The translations under genes and the position numbers were made by a program. Source: a virus. Taken from it: a DNA stretch of 5,893 bases. The stretch's first letter is position 1. Each line of letters begins with the position of its first letter. This document shows positions 100 to 5,893 of the stretch, piece after piece. The notes below the pieces were generated by a model. It saw nothing but the letters and a program-made list of their open reading frames with translations. It was not told where the DNA came from and ran no database searches. The stretch lies in IMG/VR virus record IMGVR_UViG_3300045988_013400. One strand, given 5' to 3'.

Positions 100-662
100 C
101 TCGTAAAGTATCCGTTGTGTTGTATCTTGTATAGGTGTTTTAGGTCTGTTGGCTGCCATCCATACAGTATCATGTGATAATGTGGTCTTGCTGTCTGTTC
201 TCCGTACTCTCCCGCTACAAAATAGCGTAATTTGCCCCTATAAGCCTTTCTGAGACGTTTTAAGAATTTTTGAATGTCAGTATATAGCAACGTTTGGACG
301 CTTTCAGGGCGCTTCTCTCCCGGTTTCCAGACGTATTGCACTTTTCGCATGATTTCACCTGTTTTTACTATCATGCCCGGTACGTGATTATCATCATAGG
401 TTAGTGTAATAAACCAGACTTGCTCTTTTGGATAATCTCGTGCTTCTAATTCTATTCGTGTTGTCCAGTCCTCTTTTTGTCTGATTCTGCATCCGATGCA
501 CTGTCCGCATGGTATTAGCATGACATTTTTTCTGTACATCAGGTCTTCATATTTTAGCTGTTTCCCGCTTATTTCAGAAAAGCGGGCAAGTGAATACACC
601 CGCCCGCTTACGTCTTTATTTTCCGGGTTGTACAGCCTTATTAATGGCTTGTAACAACTCAT
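1..662 (-). CDS. VP4: Replication initiator VP4 (HUH rolling-circle endonuclease), 5' portion. The gene is complement(join(5437..5794,1..662)) on the circle, 339 aa in total.
   Basis: Absent from the ORF track because it runs off the window edge. Hand translation of the - strand in the frame of ORF 5437..5868 is open from the ATG at 662..660, with an in-frame TGA just upstream at 674..672. It reads MSCYKPLIRLYNPENKDVSGRVYSLARFSEISGKQLKYEDLMYRKNVMLIPCGQCIGCRIRQKEDWTTRIELEARDYPKEQVWFITLTYDDNHVPG...ARPHYHMILYGWQPTDLKHLYKIQHNGYFTSEWLANLWG and then joins MGQIQIAQAVPETYRYVAGYVTKK. Motifs seen: CGxCxGC, FITLTY (motif I), HYHMILY (HUH motif II), and YVAGYVTKK (two-tyrosine motif III, compare phiX174 protein A YVAKYVNKK). 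The ATG overlaps the VP2 stop as ATGA, and a GGGTGAT Shine-Dalgarno lies 8 nt upstream. Confidence 0.92.
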   Translation of the reverse strand, partial: MSCYKPLIRLYNPENKDVSGRVYSLARFSEISGKQLKYEDLMYRKNVMLIPCGQCIGCRIRQKEDWTTRIELEARDYPKEQVWFITLTYDDNHVPGMIVKTGEIMRKVQYVWKPGEKRPESVQTLLYTDIQKFLKRLRKAYRGKLRYFVAGEYGEQTARPHYHMILYGWQPTDLKHLYKIQHNGYFTSEWLANLWGMGQIQIAQAVPETYRYVAGYVTKK

Positions 663-1528
663 TTTAAATAATCACCCGGCTTTCGTTTTTCTCCGTATGA
701 CCCGGTTTTGTCTTGCGGTTTCATACTTCTGCTTTGTTCTGTGCCTTTTTGTTTTCCTACTTTATCTGTTGCCTTTGTGATGGCTTTGCTTGTGTTGTCT
801 TGGACTTCTGTAAGTGCTTTTTGCAGTCCGTACGGTGACATATGCGTTTCGCTAAGCATTTGTTGCCAGCTTTGCGCAGCGTTGTACCAGTCGCTTTGAC
901 TCCAGCTTGAACTTGAGTATGCATTTGGTACAAACCCGCCGCTTCTGCTTACTCCTAGTGCGCTGCTGCTTGCAAGCCCCATACTTGCCCCGCTGATTGT
1001 TCCTGCTGACCCGCCCGGTGTGCTTGCTCCACCGTTTGCAAATGCTAAGATTGGGTTAAGCCCTGCTTTTTTCATATCTTCAACGGCTCTTTGATATGCT
1101 GTACTGCTCATGTGCTCTTGCCATTCGCGGTTTGCTAGTGCTTCTGCACTGTTGTAGTTCATTGCTACGCTGTTTTCGATGTGGTTATATACGCCCTGCA
1201 TGATTGCTTGTAAGGTGTTATACCCCATTTGTTTAAGCATACTTTGACTGTTGTATTTGCCTTGCATGGCAGCTTCTTGCCCTTGGTATGCGTATGCCTT
1301 TTTAAGCCAGTCATCAACTTGCTGTATGTTTGTTCCTGATTGGCTTCCGCTCTCGGAGTGTCCACCGCCTTGGCTTATGCTGCCGCCTTGGCTTTGGCTG
1401 CCGCCTTCTTGACCCCATCCGCCAAATGCTCCGGCGATCTGTTTACCAGCGTTTGCAAATGTTCCAACTGTGCTTGCAATGTTTCCGGCCACGTTGAGCG
1501 CTGTTAAGAATCCTGATAATCCCGCCAT
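659..1528 (-). CDS. VP2: Minor capsid / DNA pilot protein VP2 (289 aa)
   Basis: ATG-started ORF immediately downstream of VP1. It carries the gokushovirus VP2 signature EWQEHMSSTAYQRAVEDMKKAGLNPILA, a hydrophobic/Gly-rich N-terminus, a GGSxSQ low-complexity repeat and a basic C-terminus. The stop TGA (661..659) overlaps the Rep ATG. Confidence 0.85.
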   Translation of the reverse strand: MAGLSGFLTALNVAGNIASTVGTFANAGKQIAGAFGGWGQEGGSQSQGGSISQGGGHSESGSQSGTNIQQVDDWLKKAYAYQGQEAAMQGKYNSQSMLKQMGYNTLQAIMQGVYNHIENSVAMNYNSAEALANREWQEHMSSTAYQRAVEDMKKAGLNPILAFANGGASTPGGSAGTISGASMGLASSSALGVSRSGGFVPNAYSSSSWSQSDWYNAAQSWQQMLSETHMSPYGLQKALTEVQDNTSKAITKATDKVGKQKGTEQSRSMKPQDKTGSYGEKRKPGDYLK

Positions 1529-1567: not shown

Positions 1568-3250
1568 TTACAGTTTGTACAAGCCCGGTACGCTGTACAG
1601 TGGCATCCGTCTTGTGGTTTTGTTTGCTACTCGGATAGCTCCGAAAAATTGCGGTTCGTTCTCTACGATCAATGTCCTTGCGATTTCTTTTTTTCCTTCT
1701 GCCATCCACTCTTGCGATAGCATCGGCACGGTTGAATAGTTGTCGGCATAGTGCCAGAAATCTAATGTACCACTCGCGTTACTTCGCATTTTGCCAGATA
1801 CTCGATTCGGTTTCATTCTGTAGTCTGCCCATGCTTCTTGATAACCAAATGTTTCTTCATCTGTCGTATTGCCTGTGAGCATGATTTCTTTCTTTTTTAC
1901 CGGCTGCTCGCCAATATTTGCAAATTGAGGCACGTAATAGTCCAGTCTGTCCGTTCTGCTCCAGAAACGTTCAAGTCCCTGCTGGTACGAGTGATTGTGT
2001 CTCACGCAACAGACGCCGATTACAAAGCCGTGCTCCTCGAAAGATTTTGTGAAACTGCTTTCATTGATTGGCGTTACTGACATTGCGCCAGTTTCGCCGA
2101 TCGGCGTATTCTCGTTGGTCTGCTGTCCGCTGGTCTGTACGATCTGGTTAATATTGACGTGGTATCTGCCACCGCCAAGATATTCCGGCACTTGTACGGT
2201 TTTATCCGAGATAGTTACATCCCACAGTGCTTGTACCTGTTCGCGGTATCTGCTGCCACCTCTTGCAAGTGCTTCATAGTACTGCTGCACTGCTACGGCT
2301 TTTCTCAGTTCGTTAATGGTTGTTGCAGTTACTGCGCCGATGTCTGCATACATCCACCCTCCCGCGCCTAATTCGTTGGATATTTTTTCTTTTCCGGTAA
2401 ACTGCATCGCTTTTTTTTCTCCGGGTGCTCCTGTGGCATTTGTATAGCTCAGAGAGCCCGGCACGTCTGCACCGCTAGCGGCTACTACCATTTCTACCGG
2501 TCCTTTGAAATTCATGTAAGTTCCATTAGGGTCCCCTAATCTGATAGGTGCATTTCCTGTCATCGGCAGTGCCACTTCCGGCCCGCGTTGAGGATATGGC
2601 AAACAGCTTGTGAAGTAGTCGTGGAATTTGTTTACCGGTAAACATCTTCCCCCTGTTATTGCGTTTTTTAGCGCTTCTTCTATCGTTTCGCTTTGGGTGA
2701 TTTCCGTGTATGAAACGTCGCTGTCGTCTGTTTTGAATACTGCTGCATTACCTACGTTTTCGTCTCGGAAATATTCGTTCCATATTTTGACGTATGCTCG
2801 TACGGGCAGCGCGTTAATTTTGAAAGTCTTGTTTACTTTTGTCGGCACTCCCATATAGTCGAGAATTGAACCTTCCATTGGATATGTTGGATTGTTGTCG
2901 TTGCTTACTCTGATTTCTGGTACTTTATAGGTTTTTTCTGGCGACCATGGTCTTTCTTCTACTTCTCCCATGAATTGTTTGAAATGATCCCATAAGATTC
3001 TATTTGGACAGTAGAAATAGTAGAAGTCAATGAATGCATCGTCCATCACCGGATATTTTGGCGTTGTCATTCGGATGATCGCTGACGTGTCCACACTAAA
3101 TGTGTCGCCCGGCAATACTTCGTCTACGTAAAACGGAATCAATTTGCCGGAATCAAACGTTGTTAAAATCGTCTGGTCGCGGTTAAACCGTGTCCGGCTT
3201 GCTCTCATTTCTGGAATCTGGTTGAAGTGCCGTTCATTGTTTCGATTCAC
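1568..3250 (-). CDS. VP1: Major capsid protein VP1 (560 aa, phiX174 F-protein homologue, gokushovirus-size)
   Basis: The N-terminus HFNQIPEMRASRTRFNRDQTILTTFDSGKLIPFYVDEVLPGDTF is the canonical Microviridae capsid N-terminal signature. The 560-aa length, with a long central insertion, matches Gokushovirinae rather than the ~426-aa phiX-like F. The start is GTG at 3250..3248, preceded by AGGAG (3262..3258) at a 7-nt spacing. The next in-frame ATG would remove the conserved HFNQIP segment. Confidence 0.95.
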   Translation of the reverse strand: MNRNNERHFNQIPEMRASRTRFNRDQTILTTFDSGKLIPFYVDEVLPGDTFSVDTSAIIRMTTPKYPVMDDAFIDFYYFYCPNRILWDHFKQFMGEVEERPWSPEKTYKVPEIRVSNDNNPTYPMEGSILDYMGVPTKVNKTFKINALPVRAYVKIWNEYFRDENVGNAAVFKTDDSDVSYTEITQSETIEEALKNAITGGRCLPVNKFHDYFTSCLPYPQRGPEVALPMTGNAPIRLGDPNGTYMNFKGPVEMVVAASGADVPGSLSYTNATGAPGEKKAMQFTGKEKISNELGAGGWMYADIGAVTATTINELRKAVAVQQYYEALARGGSRYREQVQALWDVTISDKTVQVPEYLGGGRYHVNINQIVQTSGQQTNENTPIGETGAMSVTPINESSFTKSFEEHGFVIGVCCVRHNHSYQQGLERFWSRTDRLDYYVPQFANIGEQPVKKKEIMLTGNTTDEETFGYQEAWADYRMKPNRVSGKMRSNASGTLDFWHYADNYSTVPMLSQEWMAEGKKEIARTLIVENEPQFFGAIRVANKTTRRMPLYSVPGLYKL

Positions 3251-4380: not shown

Positions 4381-4773
4381 TTATACCCCCTTTCTGTATT
4401 TTTCATTTCGTGTGTCGAAATGTACCCAGTTGTCATATACGATGATGCCACCGCTGTTTGGCACGATGCTGTTTAGTACTTTTGCAAGTTCCTTTGGCGT
4501 TATTCCGTTCGCTCTGATGTCTGCTGCCATGCCTCTTGTATGGTAGCTGTATTTTGCTCCGCCTACTTTTTGGTTGTGGCTTACTGTGCGGTATCCGCTT
4601 GTGATTACAATCGGCTTATTGATTTTTTTTCGCGCGATTTCTAGAATGACTGCTAAATAATCGTCAACGAATACGATTGGCGTTCCGTCTTTGCATGCAA
4701 ATTCTTTTACTTTGAAGTGGTCTGTAACTTGTTCGTTTCCTTGCGCTTCTGCTAGATACGCTTTGATTTCCAT
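4381..4773 (-). CDS. Peptidase M15A-family (VanY/hedgehog-fold zinc D,D- or L,D-peptidase) cell-wall hydrolase, 130 aa, putative endolysin
   Basis: Motifs seen: ITSGYRTVSHNQKVGGAKYSYHTRGMAADI, which contains SGYR and the H-x6-D zinc ligands, and the third ligand in NWVHFD. This is the Peptidase_M15_3 / M15A pattern. The track start at 4848 is a TTG lying inside the promoter. The ATG at 4773..4771 (MEIKAYLAEAQ...) has AAAGGAG (AGGAG core at 4786..4782) at an 8-nt spacing. No signal peptide, transmembrane segment or cell-wall-binding domain is visible. Confidence 0.85.
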   Translation of the reverse strand: MEIKAYLAEAQGNEQVTDHFKVKEFACKDGTPIVFVDDYLAVILEIARKKINKPIVITSGYRTVSHNQKVGGAKYSYHTRGMAADIRANGITPKELAKVLNSIVPNSGGIIVYDNWVHFDTRNEKYRKGV

Positions 4774-4810
4774 GCCCTTTACTCCTTTCGTTTTCTGCAA
4801 TTCACATTGC

Positions 4811-4848
4811 ATTATAAGTATTTTATCATTTGTCAAGTCTTTTTTCAA
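4811..4848 (-). promoter_or_regulatory. Sigma-70/SigA-type promoter(s) driving the whole - strand gene string
   Basis: The - strand reads TTGAAA (4848..4843), a 17-nt spacer ending in TGa, then TAAAAT (4825..4820), which is a good -35 / extended -10 arrangement. Nested within it are a perfect TTGACA (4836..4831) and a perfect TATAAT (4816..4811), but these have only a 14-nt spacer. An AT-rich UP-like tract lies upstream (4849..4873). The first gene's Shine-Dalgarno and ATG follow about 30-45 nt downstream. Confidence 0.55.
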
Positions 4849-4873
4849 TATTTGTAATTATATTGTAATATTC

Positions 4874-4924
4874 ACTGTGCAAACTGGCAAGGTTGCCGCA
4901 GGCAATTTTGCCTTTTTGCACAGT
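4874..4924. repeat. 51-nt near-perfect palindrome (long hairpin/cruciform) built from alternating GGCAA/TTGCC pentamers
   Basis: Positions 4874..4897 pair with 4924..4901 around a 3-nt loop (GCA, 4898..4900). Of 24 positions, 20 are Watson-Crick pairs, 2 are G.T (4891/4907, 4892/4906) and 2 are mismatches (4884/4914, 4885/4913). Pentamers: GGCAA at 4886 and 4901, TTGCC at 4893 and 4908. Confidence 0.9.
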
Positions 4925-4925
4925 T

Positions 4926-4940
4926 CTTGCCGTAGGCAAG
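4926..4940. repeat. Second TTGCC-N3-GGCAA palindrome (cTTGCCgtaGGCAAg)
   Basis: A 6-bp stem with a 3-nt loop. It has the same 13-bp TTGCC-N3-GGCAA core as 4893..4905, and the two centres are 34 bp apart. Confidence 0.85.
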
Positions 4941-4953
4941 TTGTTAGCTCACT

Positions 4954-4991
4954 CTAACCGGTGCCCAGTTAGTCAGGCTAACCGTTTTCAA
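4954..4991 (+). repeat. 38-nt direct repeat copy A: one 24-nt hairpin unit ctaaccggtgcccagttagtcagg followed by ctaaccgttttcaa
   Basis: Identical at every base to 5391..5428. The unit folds as CTAACcGG-tgc-CCaGTTAG (8-bp stem with one mismatch). Confidence 0.95.
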
Positions 4992-5105
4992 AGTTTTCAA
5001 CACTTTCAACACTTTCAACAGGTTTTCAACAAAATGTTGCACAATGATTTTCGTCATTTTGACGAACTTTCAACAATTCAACAAGTTTTCAACAAAACTT
5101 TCAAC
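4986..5105. repeat. Iteron array: TTTCAAC(A) direct repeats in two clusters flanking a small hairpin
   Basis: Exact TTTCAAC begins at 4995, 5004, 5013 and 5024 (spacings 9, 9, 11) and at 5068, 5087 and 5099, with variants at 4986 (TTTCAAA) and 5076 (ATTCAAC). Outlying exact copies begin at 5153 and 5423. All are in the same orientation, and I found no exact copy in the coding regions by eye. Between the clusters, TTCGTC-atttt-GACGAA (5050..5066) forms a 6-bp hairpin. Confidence 0.9.
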
Positions 5106-5207
5106 AGCATTTTTTGCCTTTTATTTACGCTTTAGCGTTAAATTTTAGTACTTTTCAACTTTTCCACTACCCCTACTACTACTTCTACAACAAGTTAATA
5201 TTATATT

Positions 5208-5250
5208 GCGCGTGCGCGCGTGCGCGCTATCGCGCGTGTGCGCACGTGTA
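5208..5250. repeat. GC-rich alternating purine-pyrimidine block (Z-DNA-prone and self-complementary)
   Basis: gcgcgtgcgcgcgtgcgcgc (5208..5227) and cgcgcgtgtgcgcacgtgta (5231..5250) are each 20 nt of perfect Pu/Py alternation, separated by tat. Positions 5208..5248 are 78% GC (32 of 41) in an AT-rich genome. CGCGC (5223..5227) pairs with GCGCG (5232..5236) around the loop tatc, and the stem extends to 5216/5243 only through three G.T pairs on the + strand. Confidence 0.9.
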
Positions 5251-5302
5251 AATTAGATTATTTGATGGACAGAATAGTCTGATACATGGAGCCTTTAGAC
5301 GA

Positions 5303-5338
5303 CAAAAGCCCAGTACCTTACTTGATAGGTACTGGGCT
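5303..5338 (-). terminator. Rho-independent terminator downstream of Rep (end of the genome-length - strand transcription unit)
   Basis: The - strand reads AGCCCAGTACCT-atcaagta-AGGTACTGGGCT, a 12-bp perfect stem (5338..5327 pairing with 5318..5307) with an 8-nt loop, followed immediately by TTTG TCGTC. The T-run is short (4 T counting the last stem base). Confidence 0.6.
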
Positions 5339-5366
5339 AGGTGACACCATTTTCTAGTTAGTTAGA

Positions 5367-5428
5367 CTAACCGGTGCCCAGTTAGTCAGGCTAACCGGTG
5401 CCCAGTTAGTCAGGCTAACCGTTTTCAA
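5367..5428 (+). repeat. Tandem 2 x 24-nt hairpin units plus ctaaccgttttcaa. The last 38 nt (5391..5428) are direct repeat copy B.
   Basis: ctaaccggtgcccagttagtcagg occurs at 5367..5390 and 5391..5414, then ctaaccgttttcaa at 5415..5428. The array lies in the 3' UTR between the Rep stop (5437) and the terminator. Confidence 0.95.
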
Positions 5429-5436
5429 CGATATTG

Positions 5437-5893
5437 TTAAAGTGTCCCCCTCTTCTTCATCTGCTTCTTTATCACTCTTTCTTTTGTCTTACATTGCTCT
5501 GCAAAGTCTGCATTTTCATACTTAAGTCGGTTCTCTGCTATGACTGCCGCTTGTCTGTTCTGTTTAATTCTCCACAATCTTTGTGGGTTTTCAGCTTCCA
5601 TCATTTTTTCATAATAGCGCGGAATTTGTGCGCGTTTGCCGTTTGTGCATTGGATATATCCTTGCCGCCAGATTTCTTCTTTGTGCTCTTGGTAATAGTG
5701 ATCGCCTAAACCCGGTTTTAGGCTCATGCAAGCGAATGGTTTTGCTTGTCCTAGTTCGTAGTATGCGTTTGCTTTTTGACCGTCTATCTCATACATTTTT
5801 TTTGTGACGTATCCTGCAACATATCTATATGTTTCTGGCACTGCTTGTGCTATCTGTATTTGACCCATGCCCCATAGGTTCGCTAGCCATTCA
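5437..5893 (-). CDS. VP4: Replication initiator VP4, 3' portion (the C-terminal 119 codons plus stop are unique; 5795..5893 duplicates 1..99)
   Basis: ORF 5437..5868 translates as MGQIQIAQAVPETYRYVAGYVTKKMYEIDG.... The frame stays open upstream to the window end and continues at position 100 onward. The stop is TAA at 5439..5437. The track's M at 5868 is internal, not the true start. Confidence 0.92.
   Translation of the reverse strand, partial: EWLANLWGMGQIQIAQAVPETYRYVAGYVTKKMYEIDGQKANAYYELGQAKPFACMSLKPGLGDHYYQEHKEEIWRQGYIQCTNGKRAQIPRYYEKMMEAENPQRLWRIKQNRQAAVIAENRLKYENADFAEQCKTKERVIKKQMKKRGTL
5795..5893. repeat. Terminal overlap copy B (identical to 1..99)
   Basis: See the feature at 1..99. 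Confidence 0.95.

Follow-up and report, generated by a model that had tools for sequence, protein, structure and literature searches.

The stretch of DNA analysed here (the window: all 5,893 nucleotides (nt) of the IMG/VR virus record IMGVR_UViG_3300045988_013400) begins and ends with a 99-nt exact terminal direct repeat (1-99 and 5795-5893), indicating a circularly assembled genome with a unit of 5794 nt, and because of this redundancy percentages are given on 5794 rather than 5893. The genome is that of a gokushovirus with 44% GC in the 5794-nt unit, and its nearest GenBank genomes are the human-gut gokushoviruses KX513868 (87% identity) and KT264791 (84%), with many pig, monkey and human faecal genomes at ~75% identity. 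All credible genes lie on the - strand, and our subject is the one long spacer among them, the non-coding region of 663 nt between the replication gene Rep/VP4 and the gene of a peptidase M15. The original prediction had singled out this spacer as about 11% of the genome, rich in repeats, palindromes and a GC island and devoid of a credible - strand open reading frame (ORF), and had described the other genes as overlapping or at most 16 nt apart, save for a 39-nt VP1-VP2 spacer with a hairpin of its own. These statements were borne out: the limits of the spacer and its share (11.4%) were confirmed, the remaining intergenic gaps are ≤16 nt or overlaps with the VP1-VP2 spacer as the exception, the repeats, palindromes and GC island were all found, and the ORFs inside the spacer (80, 88, 45 and 37 amino acids) gave no Pfam match. 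A tRNA model search found no tRNA in the spacer, and no Rfam family reached threshold there, the sole match, mir-8196, scoring 27 bits where the gathering score is 59.

We mapped the spacers of 80 IMG/VR genomes with Rep identity ≥89% (the close relatives, 46 of them complete) and compared GenBank genomes with them. Only window 4992-5351 is common to these relatives, and two elements within it, a hairpin next to rep (H1) and an array of short repeats and AT-rich DNA (module M, ~4992-5207, ~215 nt), are kept in 46/46 complete close relatives. Judged by these comparisons, the spacer is not a single module but a mosaic, with four or more cassettes that evolve independently of one another. The earlier idea of one dedicated cis-acting module for replication, Rep or host-factor binding, or recombination therefore has to be modified: a replication and Rep/host-factor region is strongly supported by the relatives, none of the complete ones lacking the hairpin and the module, whereas neither the single module nor a recombination site of the dif/XerCD type was upheld. 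The best match to the Escherichia coli or Bacillus subtilis dif site was 17/28, while shuffled sequences gave a mean of 16.9-17.1 and a maximum of 19-20.

Module M has the layout of a bacterial unwinding site. Read on the + strand, it consists of DnaA-box-like 9-mers surrounding a palindrome, ~40 nt of AT-rich spacer between the 9-mer array and a tandem box pair, and then the series TTTTCAAC, TTTTCCACT, ACCC, CTA CTA CTA CTT CTA and CAACAAGTTAATATTATATT, with the GC island at its end (Table 1). The box pair and ACCC are followed by CTACTACTACTTCTA, and the TTTTCAACA/TTTTCCACA boxes, ten in total, all lie on the same strand. A DnaA box is defined as TTATCCACA and a DnaA-trio as 3'-GAT-5' (PMC10721633, PMC8287927), and the published rule for a basal unwinding system (BUS) asks for a box with ≤2 mismatches to TTATCCACA at 0-16 bp from the trios (PMC8287927). 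In the window, TTTTCCACT (5160-5168) has two mismatches and lies 4 nt from a run of five trios (5173-5187); a box within the rule is present in 132/167 unique modules, with one mismatch in 60 of them. A second tandem box directly upstream (≤4 mismatches) is present in the window as well as in 139/167 modules, and the spacer between box and trios measures exactly 4 nt in 130/167. The trio run was also near-invariant in 70 unique modules fetched independently by Rep similarity, and the trios together with the AT-rich run form the most conserved part of M (CTACTAC..CTACAACAAGTTA). Among the 9-mer variants of the unique modules, TTTTCAACA occurs 470 times, TTTTCCACA 138 times and the canonical TTATCCACA 17 times; the median module carries five boxes on one strand and none on the other (≤1 mismatch to TTWTNCACA, 166 unique modules), and 104/166 contain at least one perfect box. 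A strict form of the motif, with a box ≤16 nt from three consensus trios (CTACTACTA), appeared in 1 of 2000 dinucleotide-preserving shuffles of the window, and the control genomes Chp2, phiMH2K and SpV4 contain neither a comparable box cluster nor a CTACTACTA run. Spo0A boxes (TGTCGAA), which differ from the iteron by one mismatch, were considered and discarded, with zero exact copies in the 167 modules.

The module is widespread, strongly constrained and not tied to the Rep lineage. Copies occur in 47 GenBank gokushoviruses (samples from human, pig, monkey, dog, mink and raccoon), at least 119 microvirus-sized IMG/VR contigs carry it too, and its nucleotide identity is 70-77% where the proteins are only 37-46% (Rep) and 39-44% (VP1) identical; across deep lineages, the non-coding M is better conserved than the genes. 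In 149 cases M lies after Rep in the same orientation as here, in 11 (from two Rep clades) it is inverted after Rep, and in 27 it is inverted between VP2 and VP4. With both orientations and both sides of Rep represented, M fits a self-contained double-stranded DNA element. In relatives, M is bordered by GC-rich quasi-palindromes of the CGCGCAC type, which lie at the breakpoints of its inversions and may have a role in them. What is conserved within M is the 9-mer motifs rather than any reading frame or helix: substitutions in the conserved core have no 3-nt periodicity (p=0.30), and M as a whole folds weakly (z=-2.45). A blastn search of 72,556 plasmids returned no match to M.

The register of M, in which a 9-mer and an 8-mer box are separated from CTA trios by a 4-nt GC spacer, is that of Firmicutes origins. 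In the supplement of PMC8287927, the B. subtilis entry reads TTATCCACA, AATCCACA, GGCC, CTACTATTAC.. (the run being given as CTACTATTACTTCTACTA), that of Clostridium acetobutylicum TTATCAACA, AATCCACA, CTCC, CTACTACTA.., and that of Clostridium botulinum TTATTAACA, TATCAACA, AGCC, CTACTACTA..; the same 9+8+4 register recurs in the Staphylococcus aureus and Listeria entries, and the oriC of Ruminococcus albus contains TTTTCAACA GGT TTTTCAACA. The trio run of Clostridioides difficile is 5'-CACCTACTACTATTACTACTATGA (PMC7561715). The 'CAACA' box variant of M is native to Clostridia origins. While the exact 26-mer of R. albus had no match in metagenomes, the looser pattern TTTTCAACANNTTTTCAACA matched at least 120 metagenome loci, and a dnaA homolog adjoins 8 among the 120 matches listed. 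The gene order at L273 is rnpA, dnaA, a 700-nt spacer (29% GC), dnaN and recF; its DnaA scores 467 bits on TIGR00362 and is 81-87% identical to proteins labelled at NCBI as Ruminococcus sp. or R. flavefaciens. This spacer contains 13 TTTTCAACA and two TTTTCCACA boxes, 15 in all, and ends, upstream of dnaN, in ACTTTTCAACTTTTCCACAGCCCCTACAACAACAACAATATATTTATC (in shorter form ACTTTTCAACTTTTCCACAGCCCCTACAACAAC...). It has three exact 18-mers in common with the window, and the exact 25-mer TTTTCAACTTTTCCACAGCCCCTAC in common with seven phage modules. Comparable strings were found in a second dnaA-dnaN spacer (GATTTCAACTTTTCCGCACCCCTTACTACTACTACAACATTATATA; L337/L338, from metagenome-assembled genomes (MAGs) labelled Oscillospiraceae) and in a third (TTTTCCACAGACTATACAATAACAACAATTATATC; L335/L336). 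M itself is flanked by Rep and peptidase M15, not by dnaA or dnaN, suggesting that it works like or mimics a BUS and is not a chromosomal origin. Two side observations concern these origins. One DnaA (P0114), with 81% identity to the Ruminococcus-type protein, carries the label Alistipes sp., and a 43-kb contig (ERZ808245 NODE-136; L260 13960-14150) holds an AT-rich island in GC-rich DNA with arrays of GTTTTCAAC boxes, TTTTCAACTTTTCAACTCGACCTACTACTACTACTTATATAAAAAG and the unwinding register seen in M; the stretch fetched contains no dnaA, and the island may be the origin of a plasmid or prophage or else a chromosomal one unlinked to dnaA.

The hairpin H1 behaves differently from M. Its gene-sense loop is ATCAAGTA, preceded on that strand by GGTGTCACC (5340-5348) with a GTGTCAC motif, and it folds far better than shuffled sequences (z=-6.0). 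Hairpins of this type were found at 121 loci. Their 5' arms come in 31 versions and their stems measure 9-17 bp, yet the loop core ATCAAG is invariant and the upstream GTGTCA is invariant or nearly so. Several of the stem changes are compensatory, AGCCCAGTACC for example being replaced by AGCCAAGTACC, AGCCTAGTACC or AGCCCAGTGCC with a matching other arm each time; stems were counted by script and not from the MAFFT alignment, in which two stem classes were misaligned. At 46% Rep identity the stems are quite different (GGGCCTATTCC/GGAATAGGCCC) while loop and leader are the same, and a clade with Rep identity <42% has a different hairpin that keeps the GTGTCA leader, 12 nt upstream of the VP4 start. 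These results argue that H1 is a selected structure that tracks rep in position and lineage, which M does not. A terminator had been predicted here, and a terminator-like hairpin was indeed recovered at 5338..5307 on the - strand, its 12-bp stem being followed by TTTTGTCG. A plain terminator does not suffice, however: because the loop is invariant, the stem covaries and a T-rich tail (T at ≥5 of the 8 nt behind the stem) follows in only 35/73 distinct H1 versions, H1 must be more than that. Nicking and complementary-strand priming are expected to involve a Rep (HUH) protein and conserved intergenic hairpins, and such a hairpin is discussed in PMC9865509. We infer that H1, a rep-adjacent stem-loop with conserved loop and covarying stem, is a Rep-recognised rolling-circle origin, most likely the nick/termination site, and it possibly doubles as the rep terminator.

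On the + strand, the H1 loop (5319-5326) reads TACTTGAT, which places CTTGATA on the strand complementary to all genes. We take CTTGATA to be the nick core of phiX174 and pC194; either the likeness is due to chance, or it is the strand opposite the genes that is nicked and packaged. CTTGATA is absent from the comparable hairpins of Chp2, phiMH2K and SpV4. The gene-sense (-) strand has 37% A and 19% T (AT skew 0.33), with a similar skew in phiMH2K (0.29) and no such skew in Chp2 and SpV4. An argument for negative-sense packaging from this composition was dropped because phiMH2K has the same skew.

On balance, the spacer is probably a replication-control region made of separable cassettes, the core of which, M, would mimic or copy a Clostridia (Ruminococcus-type) origin and bind host DnaA. 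What we observe is the architecture of the sequence, its conservation, the covariation of the hairpin, the independence of M from the Rep lineage and the match to dnaA-linked oriC units. DnaA binding, unwinding, nicking and priming would be the activities behind this pattern, in the following scheme. Host DnaA would bind the boxes of M on the double-stranded replicative form, and the box pair would direct a DnaA filament (oligomer) onto the trio strand and open the AT-rich run. The opened M could then give host helicase loaders and primase access to the phage DNA, and the outcome would be DnaA-dependent replication of the replicative form or plasmid-like persistence. VP4 acting at H1 would yield single strands, the structured hairpins at 4874-4991 would prime complementary-strand synthesis, and the promoter at 4848-4820 would restart transcription.

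Several points weigh against this scheme. Phages of the phiX174 type replicate without DnaA, so that the need for such a module is not obvious, and a DnaA sink accounts for the boxes equally well. The main iteron, TTTTCAACA, departs from the E. coli consensus at position 6. Over the whole window, TTWTNCACA (≤1 mismatch) is not enriched (12 observed, 14.3 expected), only the local one-strand cluster being unusual, and the permissive published BUS rule gave 6 matches against 9.2 in shuffles. Because this rule does not discriminate here, we place weight on the strict motif, the register and the match to dnaA-linked origins. The AT-rich run GTTAATATTATATT is ~14-20 nt long before it abuts the GC island, shorter than the AT-rich region of B. 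subtilis. Aligned globally (129 aligned nt), M and the L273 origin are only 54% identical, so that their likeness is one of motif and architecture and could be convergence rather than capture. The M core CTACTACNNCTACAACAAGTT has no chromosomal copy in 185,579 species-representative genomes. Because of these last two results we claim mimicry, a resemblance in motif, register and short exact matches, and no recent wholesale capture. The M-core scan gave 16 matches, the sole real one being a complete-size microvirus contig with M (L102; CAVKUS010000079.1, 5739 nt) inside a MAG; the other 15 have no wider similarity to M and no phage genes, and the five whose context was read lie in GC-rich stretches with no DnaA box near. 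The contig is binned as 'Bacteroides sp. CAG:545', which is probably a binning artefact and not host evidence.

The main alternative accepts DnaA binding and drops the origin: M, on a multicopy replicative form, would be a sink or sensor that titrates the initiator and so delays or shuts off host initiation, or that couples phage transcription and replication to the DnaA status of the cell. It rests on the same box evidence, and we regard it as a real but distinctly smaller possibility. The ten boxes in ~215 nt reach or exceed the density in the Ruminococcus origins examined, and independence of orientation and position suits a cluster of binding sites. There is precedent as well, as the DnaA-box clusters incA, incB and incC of the B. 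subtilis oriC inhibit chromosome initiation when multicopy and datA of E. coli titrates DnaA. A pure sink would, however, need neither the trios nor the 4-nt spacer nor the AT-rich run, yet CTACTAC..CTACAACAAGTTA is what is conserved most, and the box-pair/spacer/trio register is held in 130/167 modules.

It is improbable that the iterons instead bind a phage protein (VP4/Rep or a small DNA-binding protein) and make M an enhancer of Rep-dependent rolling-circle initiation, as iterons do in circular Rep-encoding single-stranded (CRESS) DNA viruses and iteron plasmids. In its favour, short direct repeats do lie near a rep-adjacent stem-loop, and M is always in a spacer flanking rep, directly after or before it. 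But the iterons are unchanged across Rep lineages that are 37-46% identical, among which the hairpin changes with the Rep lineage, and M lies at varying distances from the hairpin and in varying orientation to it. The same 9-mers and box pair adjoin dnaA in bacterial chromosomes, where there is no phage Rep; because the motifs sit next to bacterial dnaA and do not co-vary with Rep, phage-protein binding is unlikely. Still less credible is a tolerated hot spot for insertion, duplication and recombination, in which the hairpin is the rep terminator only and the rest has no sequence-specific function: the swapping of different cassettes at the flanks of M, the 85-nt duplication-derived insertion unseen in the 80 mapped close relatives and the T-rich tail in about half of the H1 versions would fit, but M and H1 occur in every complete close relative, M is better conserved than the protein genes in deep lineages, and the H1 loop is invariant with a covarying stem. 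That the conserved core encodes a small RNA or small protein can practically be set aside, for although M homologs contain stop-free stretches of 40-76 codons and a few GenBank records carry an auto-annotated 'hypothetical protein' over M, there is no Pfam or Rfam match and no codon periodicity, the start codon is unconserved, a ribosome-binding site is absent, and conservation tracks the 9-mers in DNA that folds weakly.

A bolder form of the preferred reading, that of M as an origin mimic that binds host DnaA, can be offered only tentatively. M would be a portable cassette, captured from or modelled on a Ruminococcus-type origin, within a large clade of mammalian-gut gokushoviruses; it would be swapped among microviruses with Rep and capsid proteins ~40% identical and would reveal the host genus of metagenomic phages that otherwise lack a host. 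Such phages would have two modes of replication: from M, the double-stranded form would replicate in a minichromosome-like (theta) manner or persist, dependent on DnaA, and beside this there would be a Rep-dependent rolling-circle production of single strands from the hairpin.

Table 1. Genes and features of the window, with the strand where one applies (., no strand)
Feature	Position	Strand	Details
VP2	1528..659	-	
VP1	3250..1568	-	
Small ORFs	after peptidase M15	-	among them a VP5-like protein and a Chp2-type scaffold protein
Peptidase M15	4773..4381	-	Pfam PF08291, 77 bits; start codon 4771-4773
Whole non-coding region	4774..5436	.	exactly from the Rep/VP4 stop to the peptidase M15 ATG
Promoter-like site, sigma-70/sigma-A type	4820..4848	-	consensus scan: TTGAAA-17-TAAAAT, upstream TG; directed to the peptidase and the rest of the operon
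Long imperfect hairpin I3	4874..4924	.	DNA fold -19.4 kcal/mol, z=-4.6
Right copy of 38-nt perfect direct repeat	4954..4991	+	CTAACCGGTGCCCAGTTAGTCAGGCTAACCGTTTTCAA; one 24-nt unit plus the terminal iteron of M
Eight DnaA-box-like 9-mers	4994..5110 (starts 4994, 5003, 5012, 5023, 5067, 5075, 5086, 5098)	+	read TTTTCAACA, CTTTCAACA or AATTCAACA
Palindrome	5050-5066		TTCGTCATTTTGACGAA; surrounded by the 9-mer array
Tandem box pair	5152..5168	+	TTTTCAAC and TTTTCCACT, 8-nt register; TTTTCCACA here in many relatives
4-nt GC spacer and trio-like run	5169..5187	+	ACCC, then CTA CTA CTA CTT CTA; complementary strand = 3'-GAT-5' repeats
CAACAAG and AT-rich run	5188..5207	.	GTTAATATTATATT; candidate unwinding element
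GC island	5208..5251	.	alternating CG/CA quasi-palindromes; fold no better than shuffles, z=-0.9
Spacer segment	5252..5306	.	conserved among close relatives only
Hairpin H1	5307..5338, with leader to 5348	-	12-bp perfect stem 5307-5318 / 5327-5338
85-nt insertion	5352..5436	.	absent from the 80 mapped close relatives; highly self-complementary, z=-5.75
Rep/VP4	662, wraps round to 5437	-	339 amino acids; stop 5437-5439

The remaining cassettes lie on both sides of the common part. Window 4774-4991 is a variant cassette common to few genomes only. The promoter that the original prediction had started at 4848 on the - strand was reproduced at 4848..4820, as a consensus match only, and the same holds for both transcription boundaries, which are set by consensus matches; if they are right, 4849-5302 would be untranscribed on the coding strand, as the original prediction has it. 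Relatives have strong TTGACA-17-TAAAAT sites at the equivalent place, and a strong sigma-70-type promoter lies downstream of the cassettes in every genome compared. Upstream of the promoter, the hairpin I3 bears a second promoter-like site on its 3' arm (4890..4862, TTGCCA-17-TACAAT) and is adjoined by a small hairpin (4926-4940). The I3 cassette is common to three other genomes (L107, L150 and L185) at 84-89% identity with compensatory changes, and is a candidate single-strand (complementary-strand) origin or insulator. In most close relatives, such as L002 (1375-1460 of the rotated sequence) and L004, a GC-rich block of ~85 nt, GCGCACAGCGCT...GGCGCTAAAGCGCC, separates M from the promoter, standing where the window has a 24-nt unit and I3. 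The consensus fold of this block contains three pairs with compensatory changes, and TACGGCAAG is common to the block and the cassette of the window; the block could be an alternative single-strand origin. Several relatives also have other small genes between the promoter and the peptidase, which as the first gene after the spacer is presumably the lysis enzyme.

At the other end, the distance from the Rep stop to the hairpin is ≤11 nt in relatives, and the window has 85 nt extra (5352-5436). This insertion consists of 2.5 tandem 24-nt units (~5357-5428), a duplicated unit that an exact-pattern scan of viral contigs found elsewhere in one contig only (L209), and the 38-nt direct repeat has its left copy here (5391-5428). 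The insertion includes a copy of the junction between the last iteron of M and the downstream sequence, and therefore a perfect 38-nt repeat brackets H1, the GC island and M; we believe that the repeat arose by duplication of this junction. The two copies have a period of 437 nt, and recombination between them would excise a 437-bp circle with both candidate origins. Some observations elsewhere are recorded for completeness. One relative (L016; IMGVR_UViG_3300045988_086966, 8781 nt) has a 94% identical Rep and H1, ~90 nt after which unrelated T-rich DNA replaces M; either the assembly is chimeric or this microvirus has taken up a large piece of foreign DNA. Two others (L008 and L048) are over-length too, at 10.7-10.9 kb. 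The VP1-VP2 spacer contains, on the - strand, a GC-rich 8-bp hairpin (1538-1557) with a T-rich tail, which is terminator- or attenuator-like.

The replication signals of gokushoviruses, which are among the most abundant single-stranded-DNA phages of the gut, are essentially unmapped. A full-text literature search, with most subscription journals outside it, returned no paper tying DnaA boxes, DnaA-trios or iterons to the non-coding regions of gokushoviruses or microviruses. Elements of this kind are known, but one that forms a portable cassette in a single-stranded-DNA phage with rolling-circle replication appears to be new. If the preferred reading is true, a microvirus recruits or titrates the host initiator DnaA, which would explain in concrete terms how plasmid-like persistence, as seen in the one gut-type gokushovirus system in culture (PMC7062461), can come about. 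M would also be a sequence-based clue to the host of phages for which no host is known: indirectly, the sigma-A-type promoters with extended -10, the strong Shine-Dalgarno sites and the origin match point to Ruminococcus and Oscillospiraceae. For genome annotation and classification, it matters that a spacer called 'junk' outconserves genes over deep lineages. The candidate elements are defined DNA pieces of 20-220 nt that can be assayed directly with purified DnaA and VP4.

To place the spacer among known systems, we compared it with five of them. phiX174, of the same virus family, has a 30-bp (+) origin inside gene A, with the recognition/nick sequence CAACTTG/ATATTAATAAC on the gene-sense (viral) strand, and a primosome assembly hairpin ahead of gene G, and G4-type complementary-strand origins are known as well. 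That 30-bp origin is absent from the window, where only the 7-mer CTTGATA was found, in the H1 loop on the strand complementary to the genes, and the origin candidate here lies outside rep, unlike in phiX174. To our knowledge, nothing in phiX174 resembles the DnaA-box/trio module. The spacer resembles the double-strand and single-strand origins of rolling-circle-replicating plasmids (pC194, pUB110 and pT181 families) and the stem-loop origins of CRESS-DNA viruses in its rep-adjacent stem-loop with an invariant loop and a covarying stem, and in its separate, interchangeable structured cassettes, which could act as single-strand origins. It differs from them in that the H1 loop does not match the canonical nonanucleotide and in that the iterons close by correspond to DnaA boxes of the host, not to Rep sites specific to a lineage. 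DnaA boxes outside oriC are known from the titration locus datA of E. coli and from the P1 oriR and pSC101 origins, which, like M, recruit or titrate the host initiator through clustered boxes; these lack the box-pair/spacer/trio register, and the plasmids add Rep iterons of 17-22 bp. The non-coding regions of enterogokushoviruses contain dif-like motifs for XerC/XerD-mediated lysogeny (PMC7062461), likewise a motif for host machinery and a route to persistence, but no dif-like 28-mer exists here and the implied host factor is DnaA, not XerCD. Finally, M differs from the Firmicutes BUS (the B. subtilis incC boxes 6 and 7 with trios, and the Clostridia/Ruminococcus dnaA-dnaN origins) in being compressed to ~215 nt within a 5.8-kb rolling-circle phage with single-stranded DNA, where two genomic positions and both orientations are seen, in having the trio-proximal and not the upstream box nearest to the consensus, and in its short AT-rich run bounded by a GC island. 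Features in common are the tandem boxes with their 8-nt register, the GC spacer of 4 nt, three or more trios followed by AT-rich DNA, and extra same-strand boxes upstream. The TT(A/T)TCAACA box variant of M recurs in the entries for C. acetobutylicum, C. botulinum and R. albus, and Ruminococcus-type origins have exact 18- to 25-mers in common with the phage modules.

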